A DNA stretch of 64,000 nucleotides, from the UHGV virus genome UHGV-1519562. One strand, written 5' to 3'. The position numbers and the translations under genes were made by a program. The DNA is from a virus. A model generated the notes under the pieces. That model did no database searches and was not told the origin of the DNA. It saw nothing but the letters and a program-made list of their open reading frames with translations. Shown piece after piece: positions 45,849-63,840 of this stretch (position 1 is its first letter; every line of letters starts with the position of its first letter).

Positions 45849-46279
45849 TTTTAAATTTCTGCGAAATTTAAAATCAAAAAGAAAATTCGTTTTTTAAATT
45901 TAAAATTGACTTAACTCGTTGTTCAAATTTAAAAATGGTTTAGAGAGGGAAATGTCCAGGCCAAATGGTTTTTAATAACAAATATAATTTTTTTCCCGAA
46001 AACTACCCCGGAGTACGCCAAACCATTAAACTATCTTTCATTGGTAAATATCCATTGACCCCACAAAGGCCCCATCAAACAGCATCTTTTGTAAACAACC
46101 ATTCATTAATCAAAAGAGAAATGGTCTTGTCAATAGGCAAATTAAACAAAATTATTTTTCAGCAAAACGCATAAAGAAGAACTCTTAATTTCTTTTTCTT
46201 TTGTTTAATGCGTCAATAGACAAAAGACTATCTCAATGGTATAATAAATACAGAAATTAAGGAAAGGGGTCAATGACCT

Positions 46280-46627
46280 ATGAAAAAGTTCTTCTCTATC
46301 ATCGCTGTTCTGGCAATCGCTATCTCTGCTCTCACTACTTCTGCTTGCGCTCTCAACACTCCTGCTGAAAATGCCAGATACTGCGCAACAAACAGCATCC
46401 ACTATGGTATGAATACTGTTCGTCTGGTTCGCGCCACTGTTACTGCAACTCATGATGATGGATGTGTGACATTGAAAGACATGCGTGATGGCAACCTGTA
46501 CGCCATTGATGATGATGGCCTTGTGAAAGGTGAGGACGTTCTCATTGCTATTGACGACAATGCTACACCAGGTTTTGTCTATGATGACATGATTCTTGGC
46601 TTCTGGAATGGTTCTGCTCTTAAATGA
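46280..46627 (+). CDS. secreted / lipoprotein-like small protein
   Basis: Signal peptide MKKFFSIIAVLAIAISALTTSACA; GC-rich codon usage; consensus promoter/leader upstream; terminator downstream. Confidence 0.6.
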   Translation: MKKFFSIIAVLAIAISALTTSACALNTPAENARYCATNSIHYGMNTVRLVRATVTATHDDGCVTLKDMRDGNLYAIDDDGLVKGEDVLIAIDDNATPGFVYDDMILGFWNGSALK

Positions 46628-46648
46628 GCAGAACCATTTTCTTTTTTT
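46607..46648 (+). terminator. intrinsic terminator
   Basis: atggttctgctc / gagcagaaccat hairpin then T-run. Confidence 0.55.
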
Positions 46649-46733
46649 ATTTTATAAATAAATAAATGAAAAAGGTATTGACATTCTGGTTGAAGTATGG
46701 TATACTATAAATAACAAAAGGAGGAAAGATCAA

Positions 46734-46937
46734 ATGAAAAAGACTTTTGAGTTCTATGCTTGCTCACCTGTTAAGACATGGCGGAACAACTACCAGGGAG
46801 AAAGTTGGCAGTGGGCTAAAGTTCAATGGTTTCGCTTCCCTTCTGGTCTGCGCAAGTGTTTAGTCTTTCCTGATGGTCAGGCAATCAAGATTGAACTTTG
46901 TAAGGTTAAAAACAAAAGAGAGGTTAAGAAAGTATGA
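46734..46937 (+). CDS. hypothetical protein
   Basis: 67 aa; promoter TTGACA-17-TGGTATACT at 46678-46706, RBS AAAGGAGG. Confidence 0.55.
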   Translation: MKKTFEFYACSPVKTWRNNYQGESWQWAKVQWFRFPSGLRKCLVFPDGQAIKIELCKVKNKREVKKV

Positions 46938-47164
46938 AAGAGTTGTACATGATGTATAATAAACGCTATGCAACAGGTATAAGTTTTTATACAAATTATG
47001 AAACTGCTTTGTTAGCAAGATACATTGCTTGTATAAAGATATCTAAACATGAAAAAGACAATGTAATGACAGAGTTTAGCACAAAAGAAGTAAGACAAAA
47101 ATATTGTAAAGATTGGTTTAACATTCTTAATATTAAACAGTTGATGTTGGTAGGAAGGAGATGA
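46934..47164 (+). CDS. hypothetical protein
   Basis: 76 aa, start overlaps previous stop (ATGA). Confidence 0.45.
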   Translation: MKELYMMYNKRYATGISFYTNYETALLARYIACIKISKHEKDNVMTEFSTKEVRQKYCKDWFNILNIKQLMLVGRR

Positions 47165-47390
47165 AAAACTTCATCTCTTTCCTTTTGTTTAACATACTTG
47201 TTATAAACGAATGTCTTCGTTTTACAAGGCAACTTTCCGAATCAGTATACCACAAAGTCTGCTCAAAATCAATAGTCAAAATAGCTAAATTTAGAGGGAG
47301 AATTGGGATCCCGAATTGTGCAGTATGCCTATTGACCTATTGCGGCAAGTGTGTTATTATATAATTACAAAAGGAAAGGGGATAAAACAA

Positions 47391-47576
47391 ATGAAGAACA
47401 TCAAGAAGATCATTGGTGTCAAGATGGACAAAGCTAACAAGGCGATCCTTGACAAGTGGAAGGAATGGATCAAAGAAGAGGGCCGCGATGAAACCAGTAA
47501 GAATGACTTCGCTAACTATTACGCCAACTCTTATGAAGAGTATCAGCAGATTTGGGAAGTGGTTGAATGTTTGTAA
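47391..47576 (+). CDS. hypothetical protein
   Basis: 61 aa from ATG 47391 after promoter and AAAGGAAAGGGG leader. Confidence 0.5.
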   Translation: MKNIKKIIGVKMDKANKAILDKWKEWIKEEGRDETSKNDFANYYANSYEEYQQIWEVVECL

Positions 47577-47642
47577 AAAAGTCTTGACAAGAAGCTCAGT
47601 CTGTGGTATAATAAGACCATAACAAAAGAAAGGATGATTTTT

Positions 47643-48008
47643 ATGTTGAAAAAGACAGTCTACTTCTGTGAGTATTGCAGTGAGGTTTTTGAGGACTATG
47701 ACAGCTGCAACTTGCACGAGATGGAAGAAATGGCGAAGCGTTGTGAGGATAGCTTCAAGCTGTATGATAAGCTCGGCGAAGTCAAGCTCAACCTTAAGCT
47801 AATCCTGCACCTATTATTGCTATCTTGTGCGATGGTAATAAAGAAGCCGTTGAATTGCTCAAGCGCTATTTCATTAGCTTCGACCATAAAGCCCCTTCTC
47901 TTGCTCCGGGAGAAGAAGCCCTCTTGGTGCTCAATGAACGCACTGGTAACTGGTGCAATATTGATGAAGCCATTCAACAGCTTCAAGATTTGTTCTAAAC
48001 AGCAATGA
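47643..48008 (+). CDS. hypothetical zinc-finger-like protein, possibly frameshifted near 47795 (downstream part looks better in another frame ending 47997)
   Basis: N-terminal CEYC...C..H; promoter TTGACA-17-TGGTATAAT at 47584-47612; alternative frame 47798-47997 is open and protein-like. Confidence 0.4.
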   Translation: MLKKTVYFCEYCSEVFEDYDSCNLHEMEEMAKRCEDSFKLYDKLGEVKLNLKLILHLLLLSCAMVIKKPLNCSSAISLASTIKPLLLLREKKPSWCSMNALVTGAILMKPFNSFKICSKQQ

Positions 48009-48089
48009 AAAAGGAAAGTTTTGCGGCCTTCCTTTTTCTTTTATTTGTATTGTGTAAGTTTTTATTCTTAATTTGTGCATTTTTACCTA

Positions 48090-48123
48090 TTGACATCTTC
48101 CCAAAATTATGTTATTATATAAT
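48090..48123 (+). promoter_or_regulatory. about 45-bp promoter module (copy 1 of 2 near-identical copies; second at about 55852)
   Basis: ttacctattgacatcttcccaaaattatgttattatataatca versus ttacttattgacattttcccaaaattatgttattatataatca. Confidence 0.5.
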
Positions 48124-48149
48124 CAAGATAAAGAAAGGGGAAACAAAAG

Positions 48150-48482
48150 ATGATTAACAAGGAACTGTTCGACAGCCGGTACACCACAACCTACTATGAA
48201 AGCGCTTATGTGCTTCACGATGGAGACTTGACTCTCTACTATCCCAACTGCGGTTATGACCCTGAGAAAATCATGGTCTGGAAGATTACTGCTGAGGATT
48301 ACCGCTTTTATGGCAAAGGCGCTCTGAAAGAACTGCTGGAAGTTCTTTACAAGGAAGCTGCTCCTGAGTTGGTGGCTCTGGTTGATAGCAAACTCCGATT
48401 GGCAACTAACGACGAGGAATGTGCTACGCTTGTTAAGCACAAGTATCCCAACGACAAACAGCGCTACATTGACATGTGGTAA
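48150..48482 (+). CDS. hypothetical protein
   Basis: 110 aa, GC-rich codon usage, RBS AAAGGGGAAA. Confidence 0.55.
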   Translation: MINKELFDSRYTTTYYESAYVLHDGDLTLYYPNCGYDPEKIMVWKITAEDYRFYGKGALKELLEVLYKEAAPELVALVDSKLRLATNDEECATLVKHKYPNDKQRYIDMW

Positions 48483-48503
48483 AAAGTAAAGGAGCTGATT
48501 AGA

Positions 48504-48725
48504 ATGATAACAATCTTTCACAAAGCAGGTATTGCTTTCAGGGGAGAATATCTCCGGGAAGCTTGCAGGAAGAACTACGATTGGCTTACTTTAATGTATG
48601 CCGTTGAAGATTATAACCGCGCTGTGAAGCGTTACTACAAGTATGTTTCTCGTCACCACGCAGTTATCCTTAACAAATATCCTTCTGGCGATGTTATCGC
48701 TCTTGAAGAAGGAGTAATTCTATAA
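48504..48725 (+). CDS. hypothetical protein
   Basis: 73 aa, RBS AAAGGAG, terminator downstream. Confidence 0.5.
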   Translation: MITIFHKAGIAFRGEYLREACRKNYDWLTLMYAVEDYNRAVKRYYKYVSRHHAVILNKYPSGDVIALEEGVIL

Positions 48726-48750
48726 GGGCCGCAAGGCCCTTTTTCTTTTT
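48724..48750 (+). terminator. intrinsic terminator
   Basis: aagggcc gcaa ggccctt then T-run. Confidence 0.6.
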
Positions 48751-48854
48751 TGCTATATGCTTATATAGTGAAACTTCTAGGCTTCTAGCGAAAAAAAAAT
48801 AAATAAAAATTTTTTTGTTTAATTTACCTATTGACACCAAAGAAAAAGTATGGT

Positions 48855-48930
48855 ATAATAATTGCGGCGGCGCGCACACGACCATGGCTTTCCAATGCGC
48901 GCCGAAATTCTGTCAATACGCAAATTGCAC
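48855..48930 (+). repeat. GC-rich stem-loop intergenic element, copy B (directly downstream of a promoter)
   Basis: cggcgcgc ... gcgcgccg stem (48858-48894), then aaattctgtcaatacgcaaattgcacaa box. Confidence 0.5.
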
Positions 48931-49092
48931 AAAAATTTAGAGGAAAGTTTGGTGATTTTGCCCAGAAGTATTCATCCCGAAATGGTATTTGTTTATAAAA
49001 AGTATAGCGGCAAAACATTATCAAAATTGATTATTGAATTTCTTAAAAAATTTTGTTATAATAATTACAGAAAACAAAAGGAGGTCAAAAGT

Positions 49093-49254
49093 ATGGCTGA
49101 ATACCGTGACTGGCTGGTAGTTTTCCCCAATGGTGGGCAGATACATTTTGATAACAAGGGTATCGCAATGCAGAACGCAACCCGCAAGAAAGGCTTTGTC
49201 TATGAGTGTCATCTGGAAGAGAATGGGAATGAAACTCTCATTCATATCTTTTGA
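49093..49254 (+). CDS. hypothetical small protein
   Basis: 53 aa from ATG 49093 after promoter and AAAAGGAGG; the longer track ORF from 48862 runs over promoter and repeat. Confidence 0.5.
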   Translation: MAEYRDWLVVFPNGGQIHFDNKGIAMQNATRKKGFVYECHLEENGNETLIHIF

Positions 49255-49269
49255 TAGGAGGTATTGCGT

Positions 49270-49449
49270 ATGAAGCAGACTTATTCTATCTATCATGCAG
49301 GCGATGAAGAAATTATCGGGCCTTTTGATTCCTTTTCATTGGCAGAGGATTTCTTTCATAGGTTAGCTCAGTATGCTACTACAATGTATTACTTGGTAGA
49401 TGATTCTACTGGTGAAATTCTTCTTGATATTGAAGAAATTAAGGCTTGA
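49270..49449 (+). CDS. hypothetical small protein
   Basis: 59 aa from ATG 49270, RBS TAGGAGG. Confidence 0.5.
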   Translation: MKQTYSIYHAGDEEIIGPFDSFSLAEDFFHRLAQYATTMYYLVDDSTGEILLDIEEIKA

Positions 49450-49507
49450 CATTTGGGCCTTACCGTGGTATAATTACCATAGAAACAAAGGAAAGAGGTT
49501 GATACTT

Positions 49508-49963
49508 ATGACTGACAAAATGTTGGCTTTTGATATGGACGGCACTATTGCTGACCTGTATGGGGTTAATGGTTGGCTGTCTAAGCTGCGGAAGGAAGAT
49601 GCAAGCCCTTACCTGGAAGCTAAACCCATGTGGGATGTGGATAAGCTCAACGAGCTTATCAATAAACTAAAGCAGGCTGGTTGGGAGATTGCAATCATCA
49701 CTTGGCTTTCTAAAGAAAGCAGCCCTGAGTATGCAAAGACTGTGCGAGAAGCTAAAAAGGCTTGGCTCTTGAAATGGGGTTTCCCCTATGACCACTTTCA
49801 TGGTCTAAAGTATGGAGCCACTAAAGCGGATGCTGTTCGTAGAAAAGCATCTAAGGCAATTCTTATTGATGATAATAAGAAAGTTCGTGACAGTTGGCAT
49901 TTAGGAGAAACTGTTAATCCTGAAACTTGTAACATCATTGATTTTTTGGCTTCCCTGCTTTAA
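49508..49963 (+). CDS. HAD-superfamily 5'(3')-deoxyribonucleotidase-like hydrolase
   Basis: Motif I AFDMDGTIADL (DxDGT) and motif IV ILIDDN; promoter and AAAGAGG leader upstream. Confidence 0.65.
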   Translation: MTDKMLAFDMDGTIADLYGVNGWLSKLRKEDASPYLEAKPMWDVDKLNELINKLKQAGWEIAIITWLSKESSPEYAKTVREAKKAWLLKWGFPYDHFHGLKYGATKADAVRRKASKAILIDDNKKVRDSWHLGETVNPETCNIIDFLASLL

Positions 49964-50045
49964 GCAGGGAGTCAAAAAAGTTCTTGACAAATGAGAAAAA
50001 ATCTGGTATAATGAGTACAGAAATTAAGAAAGAGGTAGATGCAAC

Positions 50046-50741
50046 ATGAGTATTGACAAGCGCAGACATTACGTTCTGCTTCTGGACACTGAGACAGCAA
50101 ACACCATCACTGACCAAAAAGGCCGATTAGACATGACCTCAGTTCTTGTCTATGATTGCGGGTGGTGTGTTATGGACACAAGAGGAAATATCTATAAGGA
50201 ACAATCCTTTGTTAATCGAGATATTTTCTTTGATGAAAGTGAGCTTATGAAATCCGCCTACTACGCGGAAAAGATTCCCCAGTATCTGGAAGATATTCGA
50301 CAGGGCATCCGACAAGTAGCTAACACTTACCAGATTCGACAGACTATGCTTGCAGACATGGCAGAATATGGTATTACAGAAGTAGTTGCCCACAATGCAA
50401 GATTCGACCTGAACGCATTGAATTTACTTCAACGCTGGACTACCAAAAGTAAATACCGCTATTGGTTCCCCTATGGTACCGATTTTTGGGATACTCTCAA
50501 AATGGCAAGAGATGTTATTCTAAAGATGCCTACCTATAAAAGGTTCTGTGAACAACACGGTTTTTTAACCAAAACTGGTAAACTCTCAGCAACAGCAGAA
50601 AATCTGTATAGATTCATCACCAAAGACCCTACTTTTCAGGAAGAACATAAAGGTCTTGACGATGTGCGGATTGAGCGGGAGATTATGATTTACTGCTATC
50701 GGCAAAAGAAGAAAATGCGGAAAAAACTTTTTGAAAATTAA
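50046..50741 (+). CDS. DEDDh (DnaQ-like) 3'-5' exonuclease
   Basis: Exo I LLLDTETA, Exo II VAHNARFDL, Exo III HKGLDDVRIERE; promoter at 49984-50012. Confidence 0.7.
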   Translation: MSIDKRRHYVLLLDTETANTITDQKGRLDMTSVLVYDCGWCVMDTRGNIYKEQSFVNRDIFFDESELMKSAYYAEKIPQYLEDIRQGIRQVANTYQIRQTMLADMAEYGITEVVAHNARFDLNALNLLQRWTTKSKYRYWFPYGTDFWDTLKMARDVILKMPTYKRFCEQHGFLTKTGKLSATAENLYRFITKDPTFQEEHKGLDDVRIEREIMIYCYRQKKKMRKKLFEN

Positions 50742-50749
50742 AAAACCGC

Positions 50750-50778
50750 TTGACAAAACAAAAGGAAAATGATATAAT
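50750..50778 (+). promoter_or_regulatory. promoter with about 85-nt structured leader
   Basis: TTGACA-17-GATATAAT; leader has a hairpin (gaggg...ccctc) and the motif tagggtagcgacctaccgcacagaaagg. Confidence 0.5.
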
Positions 50779-50862
50779 ATAAGAGAAGTGAGGGAAAGAA
50801 AACCCTCTCCACTTCCTTAACAATTAGGGTAGCGACCTACCGCACAGAAAGGAATTGATATT

Positions 50863-51219
50863 ATGACTAACGAGAAGAAGATTACTAACAAGGGCGCCCT
50901 TCAGTATGTTCTGGACAACTGCGAGATTCCTGCCGACGTTCGTGCCAAGATTGAGATTCTGCTCCATCAGCAAGAGAACAAGAGCCGTGGTAGTGGTAAG
51001 CCTACTGCAACTCAGACTGAGAACGCACGTCTGATTGAAGTGATTGCCGACACTCTGCCCAAGGGCGAGGCTTTCACCATCTCCGACATTACCAAGACCA
51101 TTCCTGAGCTGAACGGCTTTACCCCTCAGAAGGTTGGCCCCATGCTCAAGAAGCTGGTTGAAACTGGCCGAGCCACCCGTGACACTAACAAGGGCAAGGC
51201 ATATTATACTATGGTGTGA
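50863..51219 (+). CDS. hypothetical protein, paralog family 1 (copy 1)
   Basis: 118 aa; shares TQTEN..LIE and IPEL.GFTPQKVGPM motifs with 54200..54616; GC-rich codon usage. Confidence 0.6.
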   Translation: MTNEKKITNKGALQYVLDNCEIPADVRAKIEILLHQQENKSRGSGKPTATQTENARLIEVIADTLPKGEAFTISDITKTIPELNGFTPQKVGPMLKKLVETGRATRDTNKGKAYYTMV

Positions 51220-51229
51220 TAATTGAATA

Positions 51230-51699: not shown

Positions 51700-51800
51700 T
51701 GACAAATGTTTGGCGGCCCGCGCATGGTCAAGCGCTGCCGCATTTCAATTATACCAGGTAATCCGACTTTTGTCAATGGGCAAACCGCACAATTATTTAA
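51700..51800 (+). repeat. GC-rich stem-loop intergenic element, copy C
   Basis: tttggcggcccgcgc atggtcaa gcgctgccgc, then aattatacc and ttttgtcaatgggcaaaccgcacaa box; promoter follows. Confidence 0.5.
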
Positions 51801-51894
51801 CCTTTTGTTTTCCCAAAATTGGTGATTCTACCTATTGATTTTTTTATTAAAATTTTATATAATATAATTGTTCCAAGGGAAAGGAGAAACAAAA

Positions 51895-52089
51895 ATGAAG
51901 ATTAATTACAAATCTTTCAGCGTGGAAGTTTTTGGTGAGAACATTTGGGGCCAAACCTATCTGAACAGAGTGGGCTTTGATTCTGAGGAAGAAGCCGATA
52001 AGTTTATTGAGTCTCTGGAAGAGGAAGAAGGAGTTTATTCGGCAATTAAAATTGTAAATACAAGTTATAATTTCAGAAAAAACCCTTGA
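51895..52089 (+). CDS. hypothetical small protein
   Basis: 64 aa from ATG 51895 after TTGATT-17-TATAAT promoter and AAAGGAG. Confidence 0.5.
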   Translation: MKINYKSFSVEVFGENIWGQTYLNRVGFDSEEEADKFIESLEEEEGVYSAIKIVNTSYNFRKNP

Positions 52090-52146
52090 CAAACAAACCA
52101 AGACGTGTTATAATAAATACAGAAATTAAGAAAGAGGTTGACAATT

Positions 52147-52257
52147 ATGAATGAAAATAAGACTACTCCTTGGTATATCTATCAGCCGGGCAAATGGAGC
52201 TACTTCTTATTTCTAGTTCCCTTGATTCTTCTCATTCTTATCTTTATAAGTACCTAA
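52147..52257 (+). CDS. small hydrophobic peptide (single TM helix), below the ORF-track size cutoff
   Basis: 36 aa MNENKTTPWYIYQPGKWSYFLFLVPLILLILIFIST with consensus promoter/leader (aatacagaaattaagaaagaggttga). Confidence 0.45.
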   Translation: MNENKTTPWYIYQPGKWSYFLFLVPLILLILIFIST

Positions 52258-52292: not shown

Positions 52293-52312
52293 GGCTTGAC
52301 AAACGTCAAGCC
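52293..52312 (+). promoter_or_regulatory. palindromic operator overlapping -35 (GGCTTGACAAACGTCAAGCC)
   Basis: Perfect 20-bp palindrome containing the TTGACA box; second copy CTTGACATACGTCAAG at 52750-52765. Confidence 0.5.
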
Positions 52313-52348
52313 GAGTGGTATAATAATAACAGAAAGAGGTTGATATAA

Positions 52349-52492
52349 ATGATTTCTACTATTGCTCTGGCTTCCCTGGCTGCCATTATGATGGTGAAGG
52401 TGTTCGTTGCGGTTGAGCGTGAGGATTACCGCAAAATGTTTGTCAGCGGATTTGAGTTTGCTCTTCTGCTTCTGACTTTAGCTAATATTTAA
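52349..52492 (+). CDS. small membrane peptide
   Basis: 47 aa MISTIALASLAAIMMVKVFVAVER...FEFALLLLTLANI; RBS and promoter. Confidence 0.45.
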   Translation: MISTIALASLAAIMMVKVFVAVEREDYRKMFVSGFEFALLLLTLANI

Positions 52493-52505: not shown

Positions 52506-52754
52506 ATGAGAATTTATTCCATTAAACATCTGTTCGACAAAGAAGTTGCTGGTTTTTATCGAGAAATGAAAGAAAGCGTTGAAACAAAAGAAGAAGTAGA
52601 AAATGCTGTTTATCTGGTAACGGGTATGCAGGTTATGGCAAGTATTATTGCCGAAGGAAGTGATGAAGAGGTTCTTGCCATTGAACATGAAACTTGGGAT
52701 TATTGGGTTCCAAAGTTTAAGAAACTTCTGGAAAATCTTCCTGAAAAGGCTTGA
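52506..52754 (+). CDS. hypothetical protein
   Basis: 82 aa, RBS AAGGAGG. Confidence 0.5.
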   Translation: MRIYSIKHLFDKEVAGFYREMKESVETKEEVENAVYLVTGMQVMASIIAEGSDEEVLAIEHETWDYWVPKFKKLLENLPEKA

Positions 52755-52810
52755 CATACGTCAAGTTCTATGATATAATAAAGCCATAATAAAGAAAGGA
52801 AGTCGATACT

Positions 52811-53011
52811 ATGACTAAAGAGGAATTCTTAGACACTTTGCAGGAGGTCGGCTATGAATGGAGCAGAACGCTCAATGAGCACAAGTATGACTACTCGGAT
52901 TTCGAGTGGAAGATGCTTGGTTGGTTAGCTGGTGAATTGATTGACCATTTCGACCAAGCAATTGATTCAATTCGTGATGAACTTCAGGAGGAGGAGGAAG
53001 AGGAAGAATGA
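52811..53011 (+). CDS. hypothetical acidic protein (poly-Glu tail)
   Basis: 66 aa ending EEEEEEE; promoter with palindromic -35 at 52750. Confidence 0.5.
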   Translation: MTKEEFLDTLQEVGYEWSRTLNEHKYDYSDFEWKMLGWLAGELIDHFDQAIDSIRDELQEEEEEEE

Positions 53012-53464: not shown

Positions 53465-53520
53465 ACTTGACAGATTTTTCTTTCTATGTTATAATAACAA
53501 TAGAAAAGGAGTGAAGCAAA

Positions 53521-53724
53521 ATGACAGATTTTGCAAGAGCTGAAATTCTTCTTAAAGCTTTACAGGAAGCAGGAAGATATATGCGGAAATATTTACCCGC
53601 AGAAATGCCTCTGGGTGAAGATGCCGATATTACAAGATACTGTTTGATAAATGGTAATCAAGACCCAGAAGGCTCTAAGTTTGTAGAATACTTCATTCTT
53701 AAAGCATTTGACAGTTACAAGTAA
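53521..53724 (+). CDS. hypothetical protein
   Basis: 67 aa; promoter, leader and RBS AAAAGGAG. Confidence 0.5.
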   Translation: MTDFARAEILLKALQEAGRYMRKYLPAEMPLGEDADITRYCLINGNQDPEGSKFVEYFILKAFDSYK

Positions 53725-53754: not shown

Positions 53755-53880
53755 TATTTGTTATAAACAAAAGTCAAGTGATAGCAAAGTTTGGCGGCGC
53801 GTTGATGGCTGACATGCGCCGCAATTTAATTATACCCCAAGCCACGCCTTTTGTCAAGAGTTAAACTGCACAAAATCTAT
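53755..53880 (+). repeat. GC-rich stem-loop intergenic element, copy D
   Basis: ttgttataaacaaaagt..tttggcggcgcg ttgatggctgacat gcgccgc aatttaattatacc ..ttttgtcaag..gcacaa. Confidence 0.5.
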
Positions 53881-53940
53881 TTGAGGAAAATCCCGCTTTT
53901 TGTATAATTTGCCTATTGCAATTTGGGTGAAATCTGATAT

Positions 53941-54110
53941 AATAAATAATGTCAGGAGGGAGTAGCCCAAGAAATCCTAGGGCGGCCGACCTGTGAGAAA
54001 GTATAGGAAGTAAACGAAATACATCAAGTGGTAAGTCTTATATCATGTGGTAATTGTTATTGCCCAACATGCTCTGGAAGCCGTAAATCTTGTGAAAAGT
54101 TTGCGAAACC
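53941..54110 (+). ncRNA. promoter-proximal transcribed non-coding segment (leader or small RNA) with the conserved tagggcggccgacctgtgagaaag motif
   Basis: Between promoter about 53905-53940 and promoter 54113-54141; no ORF with start and RBS; holds a Cys-rich 48-codon frame without RBS. Confidence 0.3.
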
Positions 54111-54199
54111 TCTTGACAAACCCCAAGAAACGTGCTATAATAAGCATGTAATCAAGAGAAGGACAAACTCTTAAAAACCAGAAAGCGAGATAGGTGTTT

Positions 54200-54616
54200 A
54201 TGGAAAATACTAACAAGAGAATTACTAAGCGTGAGCGTTTCCAGTCTCTGATTGAGCTGGTGGAACTGTGCGAAGGCCGTGAAGACGAAGGCTTTGACTT
54301 TGAGGGTCTGACCGATTTCCTCTCCAACGAGATTCGCCTGCTGGAAGCTAAGAAGGGTTCCAATTCCCGCAAGCAGACTGTTCGCCAGACTGAGAATGAG
54401 CATTTTAAGGCTCTGATTGCTGAGCAGTTGACCGAAGAGGGCATGACCATTGCAATGCTCCGCAAGGCCATTCCTGAACTGGAAGATTTAACTCCCCAGC
54501 GTATTGCCCCTATGTGCAAGGCTCTTGTTTCTGAGGGCATTGCTTACAAGGATACCCACAAAGGTATTGCCCACTTTTACAAGGCGCAGGCCGTGGTAGA
54601 AGAGGAAGAGGGCTAA
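54200..54616 (+). CDS. hypothetical protein, paralog family 1 (copy 2)
   Basis: 139 aa from ATG 54200; paralog of 50863..51219; ends EEEEG with stop inside a hairpin. Confidence 0.6.
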   Translation: MENTNKRITKRERFQSLIELVELCEGREDEGFDFEGLTDFLSNEIRLLEAKKGSNSRKQTVRQTENEHFKALIAEQLTEEGMTIAMLRKAIPELEDLTPQRIAPMCKALVSEGIAYKDTHKGIAHFYKAQAVVEEEEG

Positions 54617-55719: not shown

Positions 55720-55830
55720 TTATAAGCAAAAGTAAAGTAATAACAAAACTCGGCGGGCCGCGCTTGGTGGATGCGGCCCGAATTCGCGTCAATATACATT
55801 TTCCACAATTTTTCTGCTTTTGATTTGTAC
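55720..55830 (+). repeat. GC-rich stem-loop intergenic element, copy E
   Basis: cttgttataagcaaaagt..cggcgggccgcg cttggtggat gcggcccg aattcgcgtcaatatac..ccacaa; perfect 8-bp stem cgggccgc/gcggcccg. Confidence 0.5.
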
Positions 55831-55987
55831 AATTTTACTTATTGACATTTTCCCAAAATTATGTTATTATATAATCACAAAAGGAAAGGAGATTTAAAAA
55901 TTTCAAAAAAAAAATAAAAAAAGGTCTTGACAAACCAGGGCAAAGATGCTATAATGAATACAGAAATTAAGGAAAGAGGTTGATAGT

Positions 55988-56263
55988 ATGAATGAACGCA
56001 GAGACTTCATCGCAAAGAACTGGGGTGAGGATGTTCTTGAAGCTATTGATAGCTGTGAGCCGTTAAACATTACCTTTGGTCAGTTTTTGGACAAGTGCGT
56101 TGCTTGCGGTGGCAACTGGGACGGTATGCTTCTAACTGGCCTGAAGAAGTTGCGGCCTGAGATTTGGGAAGCCATTCCCCAAAATATGGGTCTTTATGCT
56201 TGGCAGTGCATCTGCAACACTTTAATTCTTGCTGGTGTAGTTATGGAAGAAGAAGAGGGCTAA
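55988..56263 (+). CDS. hypothetical Cys-containing protein
   Basis: 91 aa; ends EEEEG with stop inside hairpin gaagagggc taaaaa gccctcttc; promoter TTGACA-17-TATAAT at about 55929-55957. Confidence 0.55.
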   Translation: MNERRDFIAKNWGEDVLEAIDSCEPLNITFGQFLDKCVACGGNWDGMLLTGLKKLRPEIWEAIPQNMGLYAWQCICNTLILAGVVMEEEEG

Positions 56264-57431: not shown

Positions 57432-57459
57432 GAATACTCAGAGTTCTTTTTTGTTTTTT
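57421..57459 (+). terminator. intrinsic terminator
   Basis: aagaactctgag aata ctcagagttctt then T-run. Confidence 0.65.
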
Positions 57460-57511
57460 CTAAAAAATTATGTTATAATATATATAGAAATTAAGGAAAG
57501 GAGCTTTTCTA

Positions 57512-57628
57512 ATGACCTGTGAATTATTAAAGGCACTTGCGGTGATTATTGAATACTGTTTAAAGCAGGATAATTACAAAGTTTGTGTTATGCGTGATTT
57601 CTGTTCTAAGATGCCTTGTGAGTGGTAA
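57512..57628 (+). CDS. small Cys-rich peptide (38 aa), below the ORF-track cutoff
   Basis: MTCELLKALAVIIEYCLKQDNYKVCVMRDFCSKMPCEW with consensus TATAAT / leader / AAGGAAAGGAG upstream. Confidence 0.45.
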   Translation: MTCELLKALAVIIEYCLKQDNYKVCVMRDFCSKMPCEW

Positions 57629-57714: not shown

Positions 57715-57915
57715 ATGTTGAAAACTGAATTTGCCAGAAAGCTGGACTCGACTGGTCGATTAGTTATTCCTTCTAAGCTAAGAGATTATCTAGGAATGGA
57801 AACCGGCCAGTTGTTTACTTTTTATGTTCAAAAAGAAGAAAATGGAGATGTGTATTTGTGTGTGAAGTGTCCTAGTAATAAAATAAAATTTACTTTTGGT
57901 GAAAATGCCGATTGA
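57715..57915 (+). CDS. AbrB/MazE (SpoVT-AbrB) family DNA-binding protein
   Basis: ARKLDSTGRLVIPSKLRDYLGMETGQ matches the AbrB N-domain signature; no obvious RBS. Confidence 0.6.
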   Translation: MLKTEFARKLDSTGRLVIPSKLRDYLGMETGQLFTFYVQKEENGDVYLCVKCPSNKIKFTFGENAD

Positions 57916-57940
57916 CATAAGGCTGGTTTTATGGTATACT
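57912..57940 (+). promoter_or_regulatory. consensus promoter driving a non-coding GC-rich region
   Basis: TTGACA, 17 nt, extended -10 TGGTATACT. Confidence 0.55.
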
Positions 57941-57946
57941 ATATAT

Positions 57947-58091
57947 AAGGAGTGGCGGGCTGTGGACAGTGGTCACAGCCCGAAATCCCCTTTCCACTAG
58001 CATATGGCGATTTTTCTAGACTTCTAGCGACCCTTCATATGGCCGGGGTTTTTCCCGAAAGTGGCTCACCCGCTCGGAAAAAATTTTTTTT
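57947..58091 (+). ncRNA. candidate structured small RNA (GC-rich, about 145 nt)
   Basis: Perfect stem gggctgtg/cacagccc (57957-57981), ccgggg and gcggg/cccgc pairing, ends in a hairpin plus A/T run; no ORF with usable RBS spacing; GC far above local background. Confidence 0.4.
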
Positions 58092-58148
58092 AATTTGTCA
58101 AGTCAAAGTCCGCATTTGACTTTTTAAAAATTTAAGGCATAAAAAAAA

Positions 58149-58199
58149 ATCAACTTGACTTTTCAAAAAACAAAAGAAAAAAATAAAAGTCAAGTTGAT
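58149..58199. repeat. inverted repeat atcaacttgactttt / aaaagtcaagttgat in a cluster of TTGAC/GTCAA motifs
   Basis: 15-bp perfect arms with a 21-nt spacer; additional gtcaagtc and tttgactt at 58097-58122. Confidence 0.5.
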
Positions 58200-58293
58200 T
58201 AATAATTAAAATTATTATATAATATTTATATAAACAAAAGGAAAAAGAAAAGAGAAGCACATATGCCCGCTCGGCTTGTTGAAAGTGGGAGTG

Positions 58294-59400: not shown

Positions 59401-59578
59401 ATTCCATTAACTTTTCTCTCTCACTTTCAATTTTCCCTTCAGAAATTGTGAGTTCCATTCCCCAATTTTTTCCAAATGAAAATTCAAAATAACCACTCCC
59501 CTATATCCGCAATTGAAAATATTAAAAAATTATTATATAATATATATAGAAAAACAAAAGGAAAGGAATTAAAAATTT

Positions 59579-60115
59579 ATGTCTACTTATAAGATTAATG
59601 ATTGCTGTAACGCCTCTACTGCCGAGCTTAACTCCTCTTGTAACTGCAAGACTACTATGAAGTTTGAGGATTATATCATGGATGAGCTGCGCAAGGGCAA
59701 GTCTATGGATGAGATTATGAAGTATATCTCTGAGCGAGTCAATGCCGTGGAGTCTACTTTTAAGGCAGAGCAGAATAAGAAGAAGAGTTTTTGGTTGGTG
59801 AAGACTCCTGTTGAGGGTGATAGAGATTTCATTTTTGGTAATCTGCATGTAAAGATTAATGATGCTCTTGTTCATTTGAGTAATGGTAAGATTACTACTG
59901 AGGATTTTATTATTCTTTTTATTGAGGGTCTTTATCAGATTGCTCCTGCTATGCGCCCTATGCTTGATGAGATTAGTCTTGATGATGATAGTATTAGTCT
60001 TTTGACTGAAAGCATGGATAAGGTGAATAAGCTTTTCTCTGTTGCTAAGGCTTTTAGCAATGAGATTGATGATGACGCAGAAAGAATTAATAAGTTTTTG
60101 GATTCTCTACTGTAA
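59579..60115 (+). CDS. hypothetical protein with N-terminal Cys cluster
   Basis: 178 aa; DCCNASTAELNSSCNCK near the N-terminus; consensus promoter/leader; terminator downstream. Confidence 0.55.
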   Translation: MSTYKINDCCNASTAELNSSCNCKTTMKFEDYIMDELRKGKSMDEIMKYISERVNAVESTFKAEQNKKKSFWLVKTPVEGDRDFIFGNLHVKINDALVHLSNGKITTEDFIILFIEGLYQIAPAMRPMLDEISLDDDSISLLTESMDKVNKLFSVAKAFSNEIDDDAERINKFLDSLL

Positions 60116-60133: not shown

Positions 60134-60236
60134 ACAGAGGTTGAAAATAAGCGAAAATTGAAGATTGGTGAATACATTAAGCGGGAATTAAAAAATTGCA
60201 TAGTGAGTTAGATGAGTGTTGCGCAGAGCACATCTC

Positions 60237-60390
60237 TATTTTTAATTATTTTATCTATATTTTATCTATATTTTAATTATTTTTAATAAAAAGCACATCT
60301 CTATTTTTAATTATTTTTAATTATTTTATCTCTATTTTTAATTATTTTAAGATATTTTAATTATTTTTAATAAAAAGCACATCTCTCTAA
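60237..60390. repeat. AT-rich tandem repeat array (iteron-like)
   Basis: Units starting gcacatctct at 60237, 60293 and 60376, filled with sub-repeats tttttaattatttt and ttatctatatttta. Confidence 0.6.
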
Positions 60391-60694
60391 TTCGTAAACC
60401 CCTTCCTTTAATCTTCTTTATTTCCATTGAAAAAATAACTTTTAAGGTGATTTTAAATGAATAAAATAGTAATTTTCCCCACTAAGCCATTGCAAAAAAT
60501 CTTTCGATGAAGAAAAACGTTATATCACGAACCAACCGAGAGAATAAACATAAATACACCAATCCCATTCTACTAATGCAATTAATTTCCATTCTAAATA
60601 ATTAATTCTTAAAGACTTCTCAAAATGAGAAGTCTTTATTTTTTTAAAAAAATATTATATAATATATATAGAAATTAAGAAAGGGTTGAAAAAT

Positions 60695-60889
60695 ATGCGG
60701 GATGCACTATTTGGCGCTTATGCAAAACATGAACAAGAGAAAAAAGAAATTATTCAAATGATGGTTGCGGATTTGCGGGAAGGTAATACTTATTTCTCCT
60801 ATGGGTTCGATGATGATTTTTCCGAAGAAGAAGTCACGGAAATGATTAAAACCGCAAAGTCTATTTATAATGAATGGAGATATAGATAA
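60695..60889 (+). CDS. hypothetical protein
   Basis: 64 aa from ATG 60695; consensus promoter/leader. Confidence 0.5.
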   Translation: MRDALFGAYAKHEQEKKEIIQMMVADLREGNTYFSYGFDDDFSEEEVTEMIKTAKSIYNEWRYR

Positions 60890-61173
60890 TGAATATTGAT
60901 GCCTATATTAACGAATACTTTGCCTATAATCCCAATGCAAGATATGTTCACCTAAATTTCCGCAATCACTACACAACCCTCGACCAAATTCGCCAAATCG
61001 CCAAAGAATACACTTACCACGGTTGGAGTTCTGTTATCGGCGAAACCTATAATTCTGCCTATACAGACCTTTGGATGTTTTGGAATAAAGCTCTTTATCA
61101 ACACTGCAAAGATTCTGCAAAACCTTTTAAGACTTGCGATCGCTACTATTATTATACGGAGGTAGATAATTAA
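60889..61173 (+). CDS. hypothetical protein
   Basis: 94 aa, overlapping start. Confidence 0.5.
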   Translation: MNIDAYINEYFAYNPNARYVHLNFRNHYTTLDQIRQIAKEYTYHGWSSVIGETYNSAYTDLWMFWNKALYQHCKDSAKPFKTCDRYYYYTEVDN

Positions 61174-61382
61174 TGATGTACTATACTGCTGAATGGGTTT
61201 TTGACGATAAAACGCAAACTGACACTGGCCTAATTTCCGCCAATAATATGCGGGAAGCCGGTGAATGGGCGCAAAGCTTCTACGGTGATGATCTTATTTC
61301 CATTTGCTTTACTCCACTTGAAGACCCTTTTATGTTTCCTGACAAAGCCACCGCAGAAACTATTTTAAATTCTCAAGTTTAA
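61173..61382 (+). CDS. hypothetical protein
   Basis: 69 aa, overlapping start. Confidence 0.45.
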   Translation: MMYYTAEWVFDDKTQTDTGLISANNMREAGEWAQSFYGDDLISICFTPLEDPFMFPDKATAETILNSQV

Positions 61383-61665
61383 AGGAGATTATAATGGATA
61401 AATGGTATAATATTAATAAATAATTGTTTTTACATAACAGAAAAAGAATTAATTACTAATTATATACATTGGAACTATCATTTTGGTTTTACCATAAATA
61501 TTAATAAGGAGAAAAATATATGAAGAAAATCTTAATTGGACTTGGGATTCACTTATTATTGAACCAATCGCAGTTTTCTGGATATCATATTTCTTTGGCT
61601 GGATTGCTTCTTTTGTAATTGGTAATTCTCTTTGCTACGCCCTAAATGCTGCTTTTACCAAAGAT

Positions 61666-61962
61666 ATGATTCCTCTAATTGCCGGAGCTATTGGTTGGAT
61701 TGCTTCTTATTTTGCAATTTTCATTGGAATCCATAATAAAAAGGACAAAGCTATTAAAACTACTTATGATAATAATAATATAACACAATCTTATTATCTT
61801 GTTTGCCGAAATGGTGATAATAAATATCAATTAGTAGCTATTCCTTGGAGTAGAATTGATAATAGAATTTTTGATTCAGAAGAAGAAGCTTTTAATTATC
61901 TTACGCAAGTACTAATACAGAGAAATTGGGAAACCAATATCTTGGCGAGAACTAGAAGATAA
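61666..61962 (+). CDS. small membrane protein
   Basis: 98 aa with N-terminal TM helix; 61585-61615 is a degenerate duplicate of its 5' end. Confidence 0.45.
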   Translation: MIPLIAGAIGWIASYFAIFIGIHNKKDKAIKTTYDNNNITQSYYLVCRNGDNKYQLVAIPWSRIDNRIFDSEEEAFNYLTQVLIQRNWETNILARTRR

Positions 61963-62006
61963 TCAATAATCGAATATTATATTAGTAAAATTGAAGGAGA
62001 ATAATA

Positions 62007-62177
62007 ATGATTTATTGCGCTTATGATACAATTAATCCTACTCTTGATTTCAAAACAAAAGAAGAAGTACATCATTGCCGAAAATGGGGTACCTATTTCT
62101 GTAATAAGTGCGCTTCTAGGTATGACGGCGATCGCGTTAAAACCTGTTCCAAGAAAGGAAAATTAAATGACTGCTGA
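62007..62177 (+). CDS. small Cys-rich (zinc-ribbon-like) protein, below the ORF-track cutoff
   Basis: 56 aa with Cys/His pattern C..HHC...C..C...C; RBS GAAGGAG. Confidence 0.4.
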   Translation: MIYCAYDTINPTLDFKTKEEVHHCRKWGTYFCNKCASRYDGDRVKTCSKKGKLNDC

Positions 62178-62349
62178 TAATGGTATTTTTTATTGGAATG
62201 CTAATGTTCCATTTTCTGTAAATAAAAAGAAATTTTTGAGATTTATCGTAGAGAATGTAGAGGAAATTGAAAATTATCCCGATGTTTATGACAACTTATA
62301 TTTTAATTCAAGAAGGCAAAAGTCATCGTTGAACCAAATACACATTTAA
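62167..62349 (+). CDS. hypothetical small protein
   Basis: 60 aa ORF. Confidence 0.4.
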   Translation: MTADNGIFYWNANVPFSVNKKKFLRFIVENVEEIENYPDVYDNLYFNSRRQKSSLNQIHI

Positions 62350-62548
62350 TCGCCAAAGATAAAGATGGACATTTTTATACAAGGAGAACTGAGAAACATG
62401 AGGGCTATTATTAATTATTTTCATTCTCTATTCTGCAAGCATGATTTTGAATTAATCTTGCCGATTCCGCAAAAGCTATTATATAAAAATTTATAAATGT
62501 AAAAAGTGCGGCTATGAGAAAAAATATAAATGTATTTAAGGAGATATA

Positions 62549-62893
62549 ATGTGTAATTTATTTATTGTTGCTCTTGTTGGTATTATTAGACTGGTTTTAA
62601 TAGATAAAACTATCGTATATATAGATTTTTGTTATATTTCCATAGCTGGTTTTTTAATTGCTTTTCTTTTTATGCTCATTGGTTTTTTGCAAATTTTAGA
62701 ATATAATTGTTTTTATGCAGATAATTATGAACCTGCAAGAATTACTATTGCGGAAAATTATAAAACAGTTGAAAATTTAAATGAAATTAATGACAATTTA
62801 ATTCGTTTCAAATCTATAAAAACCGCGTGGGGAAATTGGTCACCAGTTCCAGATTCGGTCTTTGAACTAAAACTCTTAAAAAATAATAAATAA
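62549..62893 (+). CDS. membrane protein (two TM helices)
   Basis: 114 aa, RBS AAGGAG. Confidence 0.5.
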   Translation: MCNLFIVALVGIIRLVLIDKTIVYIDFCYISIAGFLIAFLFMLIGFLQILEYNCFYADNYEPARITIAENYKTVENLNEINDNLIRFKSIKTAWGNWSPVPDSVFELKLLKNNK

Positions 62894-63034
62894 TTTATAA
62901 GACTTAATGAGAAATCATTAAGTCTTTTTTATACTCAAAACCGCAATGCTCCAAAATCTTTTAATCAAAATTGAAAAAATAAAAAAAATATATTATAATA
63001 TATATAGAAAATAAGAAAGGAAGTTGAATTTTAT

Positions 63035-63754
63035 ATGATTCCTGGTCTTTATGCAAACTATCAAAAACAATGGGGTCAAAACACCATTTGGATTATTTCT
63101 GACCTTCACTTTGGCGATAAAGAATTGCGGAAAGGTATTGCTAAACGTCCTTCTGACGAACAGCTTTTAAAGAATATTAATTCTTGCGTTGGCAAGAAAG
63201 ATACTCTTATTGTTCTAGGTGATGTAGGCGACTTATCTTACGTCCGCAAACTTAAAGGTTATAAAGTTCTTATTAAAGGAAATCATGATGTAGGTTCTTC
63301 CCTCTATCAAAGAGAAATTTTTTATAAGCGTTATCCGCAAGACTACATTTCTTATGAAGGTGTAAAAGCAGAAGTAAGAGAAAAATTCCCTGAATATTCT
63401 TTTTCTATTAATGAAGGTCTTGGTTTTTACAGTCCTTTTGAATGGTGGGAAGTAACTTTAGATAATAGACTTTTTGATGAAGTTTATGAAGGTGCATTAA
63501 TTATTGGCGAAAAGCTCATTCTTTCACATGAACCTATTGCTGATATTAATTGGGCGCTAAACCTGCATGGCCACAATCATTTTGGTATTCCGCATCCTGA
63601 TAAATATCATTATAACTTCAATGCAGATGTGATTAATTACAAACCCATTAATCTAAACAAATTTATGAAAGAAGGTTACTTATCCAAAATTCCTTCTATT
63701 CATAGACTTACTATTGATTCAGCTATTGAAAAAACAAAAAGAAAAAACAAATGA
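63035..63754 (+). CDS. calcineurin-like metallophosphoesterase (protein phosphatase / phosphodiesterase family)
   Basis: Motifs ISDLHFGD, LGDVGD, KGNHD, LHGHNH in canonical order. Confidence 0.75.
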   Translation: MIPGLYANYQKQWGQNTIWIISDLHFGDKELRKGIAKRPSDEQLLKNINSCVGKKDTLIVLGDVGDLSYVRKLKGYKVLIKGNHDVGSSLYQREIFYKRYPQDYISYEGVKAEVREKFPEYSFSINEGLGFYSPFEWWEVTLDNRLFDEVYEGALIIGEKLILSHEPIADINWALNLHGHNHFGIPHPDKYHYNFNADVINYKPINLNKFMKEGYLSKIPSIHRLTIDSAIEKTKRKNK

Positions 63755-63840
63755 TTACAAGATTTTATAATCAAAATTGAAAATTTAATAAAAATATATT
63801 ATAATATATATAGAAAGTTAAGGGAGGAAGAAATATTACT

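Follow-up and report, generated by a model that had tools for sequence, protein, structure and literature searches.

A short promoter that recurs again and again within one part of a phage genome raises the question of what it does, what keeps its copies alike and what follows from having so many of them. Such a case is found in the 64,000-nt window analysed here (the whole stretch of DNA, from virus genome UHGV-1519562; all positions are those of the window), where a sequence-only reading had listed, at 46240-63840, about 20 copies of a stereotyped early unit made of a promoter, a conserved leader and a ribosome-binding site (RBS). We conclude that this interval is likely to be a region of small open reading frames (ORFs) with ~21 very short units, in which near-consensus promoters for the host sigma factor are joined to Shine-Dalgarno (SD) leaders, and which provide joints for cassette exchange. 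The region probably holds early or host-takeover genes.

Promoter units in front of small genes

Matches to TTGACA-N17-TATAAT with at most one mismatch number 26 in the window, against 1.38 +/- 1.27 in shuffled sequences; none of 100 shuffles reached 26. They comprise 13 sites that are perfect at all 12 positions (12/12; 46-58 kb, independent scanner) and 13 with one mismatch at most, and TG precedes the -10 box in 12 of the 13 perfect sites. The + strand carries 21 of the 26, at 46217-63805. The 39-kb late block has three such matches, all within ORFs and without TG. The core observation of repeated promoter units is thus confirmed by the shuffles, the + strand bias and the position before ORFs. 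All nine coordinates that had been offered as examples land on the -35 or -10 box of a genuine match, and the estimate of about 20 copies compares with a curated count, weaker members included, of 26 + strand units in 46240-63840. Outside this + strand set there are one more unit at 42766 and two perfect promoters on the - strand (Table 1).

Most units are gene-linked (21/26), each being followed by an SD sequence, an ATG and an ORF on the same strand. The distance from the -10 box to the ATG is 21-37 nt in 19 of these 21 and 58 and 84 nt in the other two; it is 49 nt for the unit at 42766, which also stands in the 22-row unit table of the analysis. Five units, at 48831, 53916, 55842, 57912 and 58195, have no gene downstream. 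The claim that most early genes are led by such a promoter was too broad: with 21 gene-linked units for ~45 + strand genes, about half have a promoter of their own.

The same pattern was found well beyond the window. A profile search with the DnaQ-like exonuclease of the small-gene region gave a family set of 79 loci from contigs of 100-197 kb, 1.45 Mb of DNA, which contains 780 perfect promoters where 0.7 are expected from composition; TGn is present in 81% of them, and their orientation strongly follows that of the genes. Of the 1234 unique promoters that deviate from the consensus at no more than one position, 55% are followed by a short SD leader and an ORF. Their -10-to-ATG distance has a sharp peak at 29-34 nt and a second mode at 49-51 nt, and the purine content of the leader is 0.77 against a background of 0.52. 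The statistics, the orientation, the position before ORFs and the conservation across 79 related contigs support a reading of the units as housekeeping-sigma (sigma-70/sigma-A) promoters with an extended -10 element, followed by a short leader and a putative RBS. That they would act early is suggested by analogy with the systems compared below.

The match to the housekeeping-sigma consensus of the host is near-perfect, from which the host RNA polymerase would be expected to transcribe the units without a phage factor. Transcription would start ~7 nt after the -10 box, at the A of (C/T)AGAAA. The resulting 5' untranslated region (UTR) of ~15-30 nt would be 77% purine, unstructured and barely more than a long SD; with the start assumed at this position, an SD-like polypurine tract lies within ~20 nt of the mRNA 5' end. 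By analogy, an initiating ribosome may then cover nearly the entire leader, which would give high translation and shield the 5' end from decay. SD duplex energies, calculated against a generic Firmicute 16S 3' end, lie between -9 and -13.5 kcal/mol, with a single exception (47607, -1.5). The leaders are unstructured, with minimum free energies of 0 to -5.4 kcal/mol and z-scores of -0.7 to +0.9; with none below -0.7, the leader as an RNA structure was rejected. Also rejected was the idea that early units have stronger SDs than other genes: the values are -11.7 kcal/mol for the units and -10.3 and -10.4 kcal/mol for the internal and late genes (p = 0.2). Because internal and late genes have equally strong SDs, what sets the units apart is their fixed geometry, together with the promoter and with the discriminator and start region.

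Terminator-like hairpins lie immediately upstream of ~10 units, and the region is therefore cut into one- or two-gene transcription units. Many units would be insulated in this way or by stem-loops that overlap the promoter. The -35 box had been described as often overlapping the stop codon of the previous gene. Such overlaps are real, in four units (49446, 52086, 52751 and 57912), but at 16% family-wide they occur sometimes rather than often. The TGA within TTGACA as a specially selected stop was rejected, with 160 cases against 118 and 143 in the other two phases.

Promoter architectures and the conserved leader

The sequence-only reading spoke of a single unit. The joining of a housekeeping-sigma promoter to a leader and RBS holds throughout, but there are at least three promoter architectures, which we separated by repeat families and upstream consensus, and several types of leader. 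Class A has an A-tract followed by C-TTGACA-A, i.e. AAAAnnCTTGACAA-17-TGnTATAAT, and frequently overlaps the 3' end of the gene before it. Class C has TTGTGCA-N-, then (T)TT(G/A)CCTATTGACA, and sits after terminators, opening a new block. Class A and C units together span 46.2-57.9 kb. In class B (57.4-63.8 kb), the -35 box is reduced to TTG, an A-rich spacer ttTTtaaAAAAaTATta and the block TATAATATATATAGAAA are conserved, and TG is missing. Family-wide, class B has 63 unique copies in 37 loci, with TG in 5/63; the -35 box is variable, and the spacer and discriminator are conserved.

One consequence could be that the units fall into two or three temporal or regulatory classes, with A and C immediate-early and read by the host sigma factor and B delayed or middle. 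Class B (TTGaaa, spacer AAAAAATAT, invariant TATAATATATATAGAAA, no TG) would then depend on a phage factor or follow different kinetics. We consider this possible, although we lean against it. The standing of class B as a separate, family-conserved architecture is consistent with it, as are its location in the AT-rich part (GC 0.29-0.31, against 0.36-0.40) and its adjacency to enzyme genes such as the phosphoesterase. The extra conserved TTGTGCA box upstream of the -35 box in class C, and an AbrB/MraZ-like DNA-binding protein encoded among the units, point the same way. However, class B keeps a perfect TATAAT, usually TTG at -35, and the 17-nt spacing, which is enough for sigma-A. Neither a phage sigma factor nor a phage RNA polymerase was detected in the window, and leader variants are common to classes A and B.

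The TTGTGCA box is found ~10 nt upstream of the -35 box in class C promoters and in the F- and R-type promoters described below (47310-47330, 48068-48080 and 55822-55832), with reverse-complement copies at 51785-51792 and 53866-53873; the boxes are sometimes inverted pairs (GCACAA ... TTGTGCA) ~35 nt apart. It is possibly an operator. The AbrB/MraZ-like protein is a 66-amino-acid (aa) swapped-hairpin DNA-binding protein encoded at 57715-57915 (+) (PF02381, 24.2 bits against a cut-off of 23), and is a candidate regulator of the units. As regards composition, GC is 0.36-0.40 in the class A/C region (46000-58000) and 0.26-0.33 elsewhere, including the late genes and the class B region, with the exception of one 2-kb bin (32-34 kb) that reaches 0.39. 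This contrast could reflect host-codon adaptation of the first-expressed genes, or a separate origin.

The conserved leader described for most of these genes is likewise real and more restricted than claimed. The strict leader TATAAT-NNN-TAYAGAAATTAAGRAAAG, i.e. (A/T)ATA(C/T)AGAAATTAAGRAAAG, occurs in 8 units at up to 3 mismatches, where 0 are expected, but only in these; the rest have a generic polypurine leader. The exact leader A(C/T)AGAAATTAAG is limited to 6-8 units, and the AGAAATTAAG leader is found behind class A as well as class B promoters. Among relatives, the exact 21-nt leader is present in 14 IMG/VR contigs, in every case in the context CTTGACAA-17-TGnTATAAT-4 nt-leader-7 to 9 nt-ATG, with unrelated spacers and downstream genes. 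These contigs have a DnaQ-like exonuclease 39-68% identical to that of the window. The exact AGAAATTAAG block occurs in 23 units in 17 loci.

A leader as constant as this might be a recognition site: A(C/T)AGAAATTAAGRAAAG(A)GGT, as DNA from +1 to +20 or as the mRNA 5' end, could be bound by a regulator that coordinates a subset of the early genes. This regulator might be an early shut-off repressor, a protein that represses translation as RegA of T4 does, or an RNase directed to SDs as RegB of T4 is. In favour of such a site, the leader is identical at 21/21 positions in relatives whose exonuclease is only 39-42% identical and whose spacers differ, it always stands at offset 4 after the -10 box (23/23), and it is shared across two promoter classes. 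Moreover, other polypurine leaders work in the same genomes, so a plain SD does not need this sequence. Yet only 23 of ~1500 family promoters have the leader, the genes downstream have no evident commonality, and no candidate regulator was linked to it; searches of both strands of the window found no antisense partner, i.e. no complementary RNA. Promoter escape alone is said to conserve the initial transcribed sequences of strong phage promoters such as N25 of T5. On balance we think a regulatory site of this kind unlikely. A leader copied from a conserved host gene was rejected, as the 11 bacterial or metagenome-assembled genome (MAG) hits were 4 phage-type units on short MAG contigs and unrelated coding sequence.

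Hairpin modules and possible recombination joints

Secondary structure is associated with a subset of the promoters. Stems of at least 6 bp embrace the -35 box in 27/158 cases, against 11.6 +/- 3.3 expected, and a GC-rich hairpin follows immediately after the promoter in 201/1234 family promoters. The hairpin has a GC-only stem of 8-12 bp and is present in several copies per genome. R-type promoters lie on the gene strand (95/95 on +) with the form ttttGCCTATTGACA-17-TATAAT-GG-stem; F-type promoters lie on the opposite strand (75/75 on -) with the form cttttCTCTTGACA-17-TATAAT-GGWAAATTC-stem. R and F form a convergent pair in 81 cases; their -10 boxes are then separated by 36-38 nt, a space that holds the hairpin (for example, L068:8960-9100 and L068:11160-11290 in the family set). 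The stem sequence varies from copy to copy and pairing is retained: 89% of positions are paired, against 27-47% when the alignment is slid, and the covariation score is 0.48, compared with no more than 0.12. In the window there are two F-only modules, one R-only module and one vestigial hairpin (Table 1).

From their sequence, F transcripts would begin 1-2 nt before the stem, with a U-tract right after the stem in many relatives, and R transcripts would begin within the stem or at its foot. The most economical reading is that the module would be an insulator that blocks incoming or antisense transcription while R re-initiates. It would in this respect be like the promoter-early-stem-loop (PeSL) cassettes of T4-type phages, in which a consensus early promoter and a stem-loop in variable register lie between an upstream stop and a downstream SD and ATG (PMC2839356, PMC4122927). 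Canonical terminators are, however, already present just upstream of the promoter-hairpin modules; an interference device or a short hairpin RNA would be the alternatives. The GC hairpins as mimics of CRISPR repeats were rejected, since the stems differ among copies within one genome with pairing kept, and so were N4-type hairpin promoters, the stems being 8-12 bp long between ordinary promoters with no virion RNA polymerase identified.

A further structured element is the ~85-nt non-coding RNA at 53950-54035 (+), which would be transcribed from the unit at 53916. In 32 loci its sequence identity is 86-88%, although that of the proteins is only ~58%, and it has a hairpin with three covarying pairs and conserved single-stranded purine-rich tracts; it has no match in Rfam. 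Its 5' end, AATGTCA(A/G)GAGG, is common to other units in relatives. The transcript from 57935 (unit 21) was rejected as a structured RNA (z = -1.35, not significant; conserved in the closest relative only).

The promoter-hairpin modules, the over-conserved leader and the conserved RNA are an unexplained remainder. Together, the convergent modules, the 20-nt leader and the non-coding RNA may form a second regulatory layer in the family promoters, in which a dedicated phage regulator of early timing would target or produce one or more of them, but we regard this as doubtful. In such a scheme the modules would act as ~40-nt hairpin RNAs or as bidirectional insulator or interference devices; alternatively, the elements could be priming or decoy RNAs.

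The sequence-only reading also proposed the units as natural substrates for homologous recombination. The window and its relative L015 are ~95% identical and differ by several replacements, the largest being a 2-kb cassette (window 51784-53816, L015 11738-14530). The swapped cassette is flanked on both sides by copies of the GC hairpin and - strand promoter (the left and right F-type elements of Table 1), and the switch from homology to non-homology falls around the TTTTGTCAA box. From the 224 locus pairs that share 6 kb or more at an identity of at least 85%, we collected 1648 homology breakpoints. Of these, 25% are no more than 30 nt away from a promoter core, whereas 9.3% of random positions are that close; for non-coding positions only, the values are 32% and 20% (1.6 times). 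Breakpoints fall within 35% of plain and 33% of hairpin-type units, against 14.7% of random windows of equal size, and the overall enrichment at units is 2.3-2.7 times. The proposal therefore has support from the enrichment and the one cassette swap, but 75% of breakpoints are not at promoters.

A related question is whether the similarity of the units simply reflects recent copying, by a mobile promoter cassette or by segmental duplication. The reported near-identical pair is indeed present, with 95% identity between 48082-48119 and 55834-55871 and 87% over 67 nt between 48059-48125 and 55811-55877, spacer and flanks included. The window also has paralogous cassettes (50863-51641 and 54200-55030) and a tandem duplicate (56578-56885), and PeSLs of T4-type phages have been described as mobile cassettes (PMC2839356). 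Nevertheless, nearly all other pairs match in the functional boxes and leader only, with unrelated 17-nt spacers and upstream flanks, and the cassette duplications must be old because the paralogous proteins are only 32-45% identical. Across distant relatives the -35 box, the -10 box and the stretch from -10 to ATG are conserved while the spacers differ; selection thus appears to act on the boxes and the transcribed leader and not on the spacers, and simple recent copying is disfavoured except for the 48.08/55.84 kb pair and the old duplications. We consider recent copying quite improbable; promoter and leader would instead be maintained by selection, and use of the repeated units and promoter-hairpin modules as preferred joints for cassette exchange among related phages would be a by-product. 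That the matches are compositional artefacts of an AT-rich genome has practically no chance of being right: weak matches are common in such DNA (a generic scanner gave 107 weak sites where 68 are expected), but the shuffle controls refute it (26 matches against 1.4 expected at up to one mismatch in the window, 780 against 0.7 family-wide), as do strand bias, intergenic position, TGn, fixed spacing to the ATG and conservation in relatives.

The two paralogous two-gene cassettes (+) have 45% and 32% aa identity between their proteins. A perfect promoter precedes each of them, and its leader, unusually long at 84 and 58 nt, is partly conserved in relatives; the C-terminus of the first protein looks winged-helix-like by eye. 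Paralogous proteins of 118 and 138 aa are, beside the AbrB/MraZ-like protein, candidate regulators. The tandem duplicate at 56578-56885 (+) is of a small ORF, both copies starting with MMKIKI (70% DNA identity); the truncated second copy is missing from L015.

Several points weigh against the reading of the interval as very short, host-transcribed early units that serve as exchange joints. Class B lacks a good -35 box and TG and has a conserved spacer and downstream block of its own; it may need another factor or be a separate temporal class. The SD part is not specific to the units, and a generic RBS explanation would not require the AGAAATTAAG block to be so strongly conserved. A perfect promoter at 42766 precedes a probable lysis cassette, and a consensus promoter alone does not therefore mean 'early'. 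Start sites, promoter strength and timing are all predictions. Finally, the breakpoint evidence is supportive and not conclusive, because the loci are phylogenetically related yet treated as independent, and the ends of high-scoring segment pairs are approximate.

Table 1. Promoter units and related elements of the window (classes and types as defined in the text)
Feature	Span	Strand	Promoter and leader	Downstream and flanking features
Unit 1	46217..46282	+	-35 TAGACA, TGgTATAAT (46240-46245), leader AATACAGAAATTAAGGAAAGGGGT	ATG 46280; product a 115-aa signal-peptide protein
Unit 2	46678..46736	+	TTGACA-17-TGgTATACT, polypurine leader	ATG 46734; terminator 46605-46640 upstream
Unit 3	47332..47393	+	Class C: TTGTGCA box, CCTATTGACC-17-TGtTATTAT	ATG 47391
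Unit 4	47584..47636	+	Class A, 12/12	ATG 47634
Unit 5	48090..48152	+	Class C, near-duplicate of unit 18 (55842)	ATG 48150
Unit 6	48831..48935	+	R-type, 12/12	GC hairpin 48868-48904 directly after promoter; no ORF
Unit 6, 3' part	48831..48935	+	Vestigial reverse -35 box TGTCAATA and GCACAA	After the hairpin
Unit 7	49034..49095	+	TTGAAT-17-TGtTATAAT	ATG 49093
Unit 8	49446..49510	+	12/12; stem-loop around -35; TGA of TTGACA is the stop of ORF 49264-49449	ATG 49508; HAD-like phosphatase
Unit 9	49984..50048	+	12/12, AGAAATTAAG leader	ATG 50046 (DnaQ-like exonuclease)
Unit 10	50750..50865	+	12/12, 84-nt structured leader	ATG 50863, first gene of paralogous 2-gene cassette
F-type element, left	51712..51776	-	Perfect promoter 51776-51748	Transcript would open with GC hairpin 51741-51712
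Unit 11	51835..51897	+	Class C, weak -35 TTGATT	ATG 51895
Unit 12	52086..52149	+	12/12, AGAAATTAAG leader; -35 TGA is the stop of the upstream ORF	ATG 52147
Unit 13	52296..52351	+	12/12; 8-bp stem GGCTTGAC/GTCAAGCC (52290-52309) around -35	ATG 52349
Unit 14	52751..52813	+	12/12; stem-loop over -35 (52749-52764); -35 TGA is the stop of 52506-52754	ATG 52811
Unit 15	53467..53523	+	12/12	ATG 53521; immediately 3' of terminator 53435-53463
F-type element, right	53793..53857	-	Perfect promoter 53857-53829	GC hairpin 53822-53793
Unit 16	53916..54035	+	Class C, 16-nt spacer	Conserved non-coding RNA (~53950-54035)
Unit 17	54113..54202	+	12/12, 58-nt leader	ATG 54200 (second paralogous cassette)
Vestigial GC hairpin	55754..55780		Intact F or R promoter absent	Fourth intergenic module
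Unit 18	55842..55870	+	Class C, near-duplicate of unit 5	No ORF; reads into unit 19
Unit 19	55927..55990	+	12/12, full leader GAATACAGAAATTAAGGAAAGAGGTTGATAGT	ATG 55988
Unit 20	57451..57514	+	Class B: weak -35, TATAATATATATAGAAATTAAG	ATG 57512; immediately 3' of terminator 57420-57449
Unit 21	57912..58092	+	TTGACA-17-TGgTATACT; -35 TGA is the stop of AbrB/MraZ-like gene 57715-57915	~150 nt lacking an ORF
Unit 22	58195..58223	+	Class B-like, TTGATT	Only a 17-codon ORF and a hairpin
Unit 23	59513..59581	+	Class B	ATG 59579
Unit 24	60635..60697	+	Class B, AGAAATTAAG leader	ATG 60695; after terminator 60610-60638
Unit 25	62971..63037	+	Class B	ATG 63035 (metallophosphoesterase); after terminator 62899-62926
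Unit 26	63777..63843	+	Class B	ATG 63841
Promoter outside 46240-63840	42766..42846	+	Perfect	Probable lysis cassette (endolysin-like 43749-44321)

The phage, its host and comparable systems

The window comes from the genome of a tailed phage. Its - strand is densely packed with large genes at 3.5-42.6 kb, among them those for a portal protein (phrog_2739, 1e-82) and a terminase-like protein, together with two ORFs of 2864 and 1439 aa; the + strand gene block begins at 42.7 kb, and the right third of the window is the small-gene region, with its ~45 small + strand ORFs. Annotated products in that region are a HAD-type phosphatase, a DnaQ-like exonuclease, a T5orf172 protein, the AbrB/MraZ-like DNA-binding protein and a metallophosphoesterase. 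The remaining products are ORFans, most having no family match. A megablast search of 46000-64000 against 50,697 phage records found no nucleotide-level match. By portal, the closest database phages are an unannotated faecal contig (53% aa identity), phAss-1 (40%) and large Enterococcus, Bacillus and Lactococcus phages (at most 31%). phAss-1 is an uncultured human-gut phage with hosts assigned as Clostridia-type, and promoters are not mentioned in the paper on it (PMC10607447).

The source is an uncultured phage, large and tailed, from the human or animal gut. Its host is most likely a Firmicute of the class Clostridia, given that the portal relatives are Firmicute phages and phAss-1 (PMC10607447) and that MAG-binned contigs carry the unit. 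There are four such contigs (L021, L023, L025 and L027), with up to 17 perfect promoters in 8 kb; their bins are two Acutalibacteraceae, one Clostridia and one Paludibacteraceae. They are probably phage DNA binned together with its host, and a weak clue to the latter. Because phAss-1, the nearest named relative, uses genetic code 15, stop-codon recoding was considered for the window and rejected: under code 11 the late module is already dense, and recoding TAG brings hardly any gain. The window and 10 related loci contain no tRNAs, and the GGGTTCAAATCCC stretch of L068 is therefore not a detectable tRNA. Rfam gave zero matches at gathering thresholds over the entire window, the matches with E<=1 in 46000-60600 being far below threshold.

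Other features lie away from the units. Next to the late block, on its tail-fibre side, lies a reverse transcriptase gene at 1367-2353 (+) (RVT_1, E = 2.8e-14). A promoter-like site is present at 148-176, and a search of 1-12500 for template and variable repeats of the reverse transcriptase found no such pair. The divergent junction of the - and + strand blocks is at 42618-42800, where a near-consensus - strand promoter, TTGACT-18-TATAAT (~42686-42658), stands before the first - strand gene and is kept in relatives L017 and L018. An AT-rich iteron-like array (60220-60400; units TTTTAATTATTTT and GCACATCTCT) lies inside a 530-bp gene-free stretch, and two adjoining strong hairpins (59333-59405) lie 800 bp to its left. 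This region is a possible replication origin or genome end. A close relative, IMG/VR contig 3300045988_145614, ends near the array (~60.4 kb), which proves nothing on genome ends.

Two known systems resemble the units most. In T4-type phages, PeSLs are concentrated beside ORFans and mark the indel joints of close relatives (PMC2839356, PMC4122927). The likeness extends to the order of parts (a stop in A-rich sequence, a consensus sigma-70 promoter, a stem-loop over the -35 box, in the spacer or past the -10 box, then SD and ATG) and to the joints of replacements between close relatives, which fall at cassettes in plastic, ORFan-rich regions. In contrast to PeSLs, the present units belong to another lineage with a Gram-positive-type host, have a stem over the -35 box in only 10-17% and after the -10 box in 16%, and include many modules that are convergent promoter pairs, which have not been described for PeSLs. 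The units are an analogue and not a member of the PeSL group, because the portal relatives are phAss-1 and large Firmicute phages and not T4-like myoviruses.

The second system is phage SPO1, whose host-takeover module consists of small early genes with promoters and RBSs typical of highly expressed genes (Stewart et al. 1998, cited in PMC6873191). The script used on the window, when run on SPO1 1-14000, found 12 stereotyped units with an A-tract, TTGAC(T/A), 17 nt with TG and (A/C/T)ATAAT; repeated leader segments end in AAAAGGAGAG. Both phages thus have small, mostly unknown genes in short operons, stereotyped sigma-A promoters, repeated leader segments and strong RBSs. The SPO1 -10 box, however, is mostly AATAAT or CATAAT and none of its units is 12/12, against 13 perfect ones here; its leaders are longer and often hairpin-first; and SPO1 is a myovirus (Herelleviridae) unrelated to this phage, with its module within the terminal redundancy.

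For the leader, a parallel is offered by SP82 early RNA and STAB-SD sequences in Bacillus, where ribosome binding at a 5' polypurine SD-like tract prolongs mRNA life (PMC7509114). A strong SD-like polypurine tract very close to the phage mRNA 5' end is common to both. The tract here differs in being the actual RBS of the first gene, and stabilisation would be a prediction from its sequence.

The T5 early promoters PN25, P25 and P26 are reportedly very strong host-polymerase promoters with conserved blocks outside the hexamers. As a lead only, their purine-rich initial transcribed region is said to run into the SD as here (ATAAATTTGAGAGAGGAGTT in PN25, AGAAATTAAGGAAAGAGGTT in the window), whereas T5 is an E. 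coli phage whose promoters are reportedly not perfect consensus and have no TG extension. The pR and pL promoters of coliphage 186 are said to be face-to-face, with start sites 62 bp apart, in one copy at the lysis-lysogeny switch. Like the R/F modules, they are convergent and near enough for transcriptional interference; the modules differ in occurring several times per genome and in having -10 boxes separated by 36-38 nt, with a covarying GC hairpin in the gap.

The units are an analogue of the SPO1 and PeSL systems in an unrelated phage lineage, and so a known kind of design. Being familiar from SPO1 and T4, it does not overturn current understanding. What the analysis provides is a sequence-level map of the probable first transcription programme in a large, uncultured and apparently common family of gut phages. 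The perfect sigma-A promoters with TGn and long SDs are an independent argument for a Firmicute (Clostridia) host, and the ~1200 distinct natural promoter/5' UTR variants amount to a ready catalogue of parts for expressing genes in gut Clostridia. With the breakpoint analysis, the PeSL idea of regulatory cassettes as gene-shuffling joints is extended from T4-like phages of Gram-negative bacteria to an unrelated lineage.

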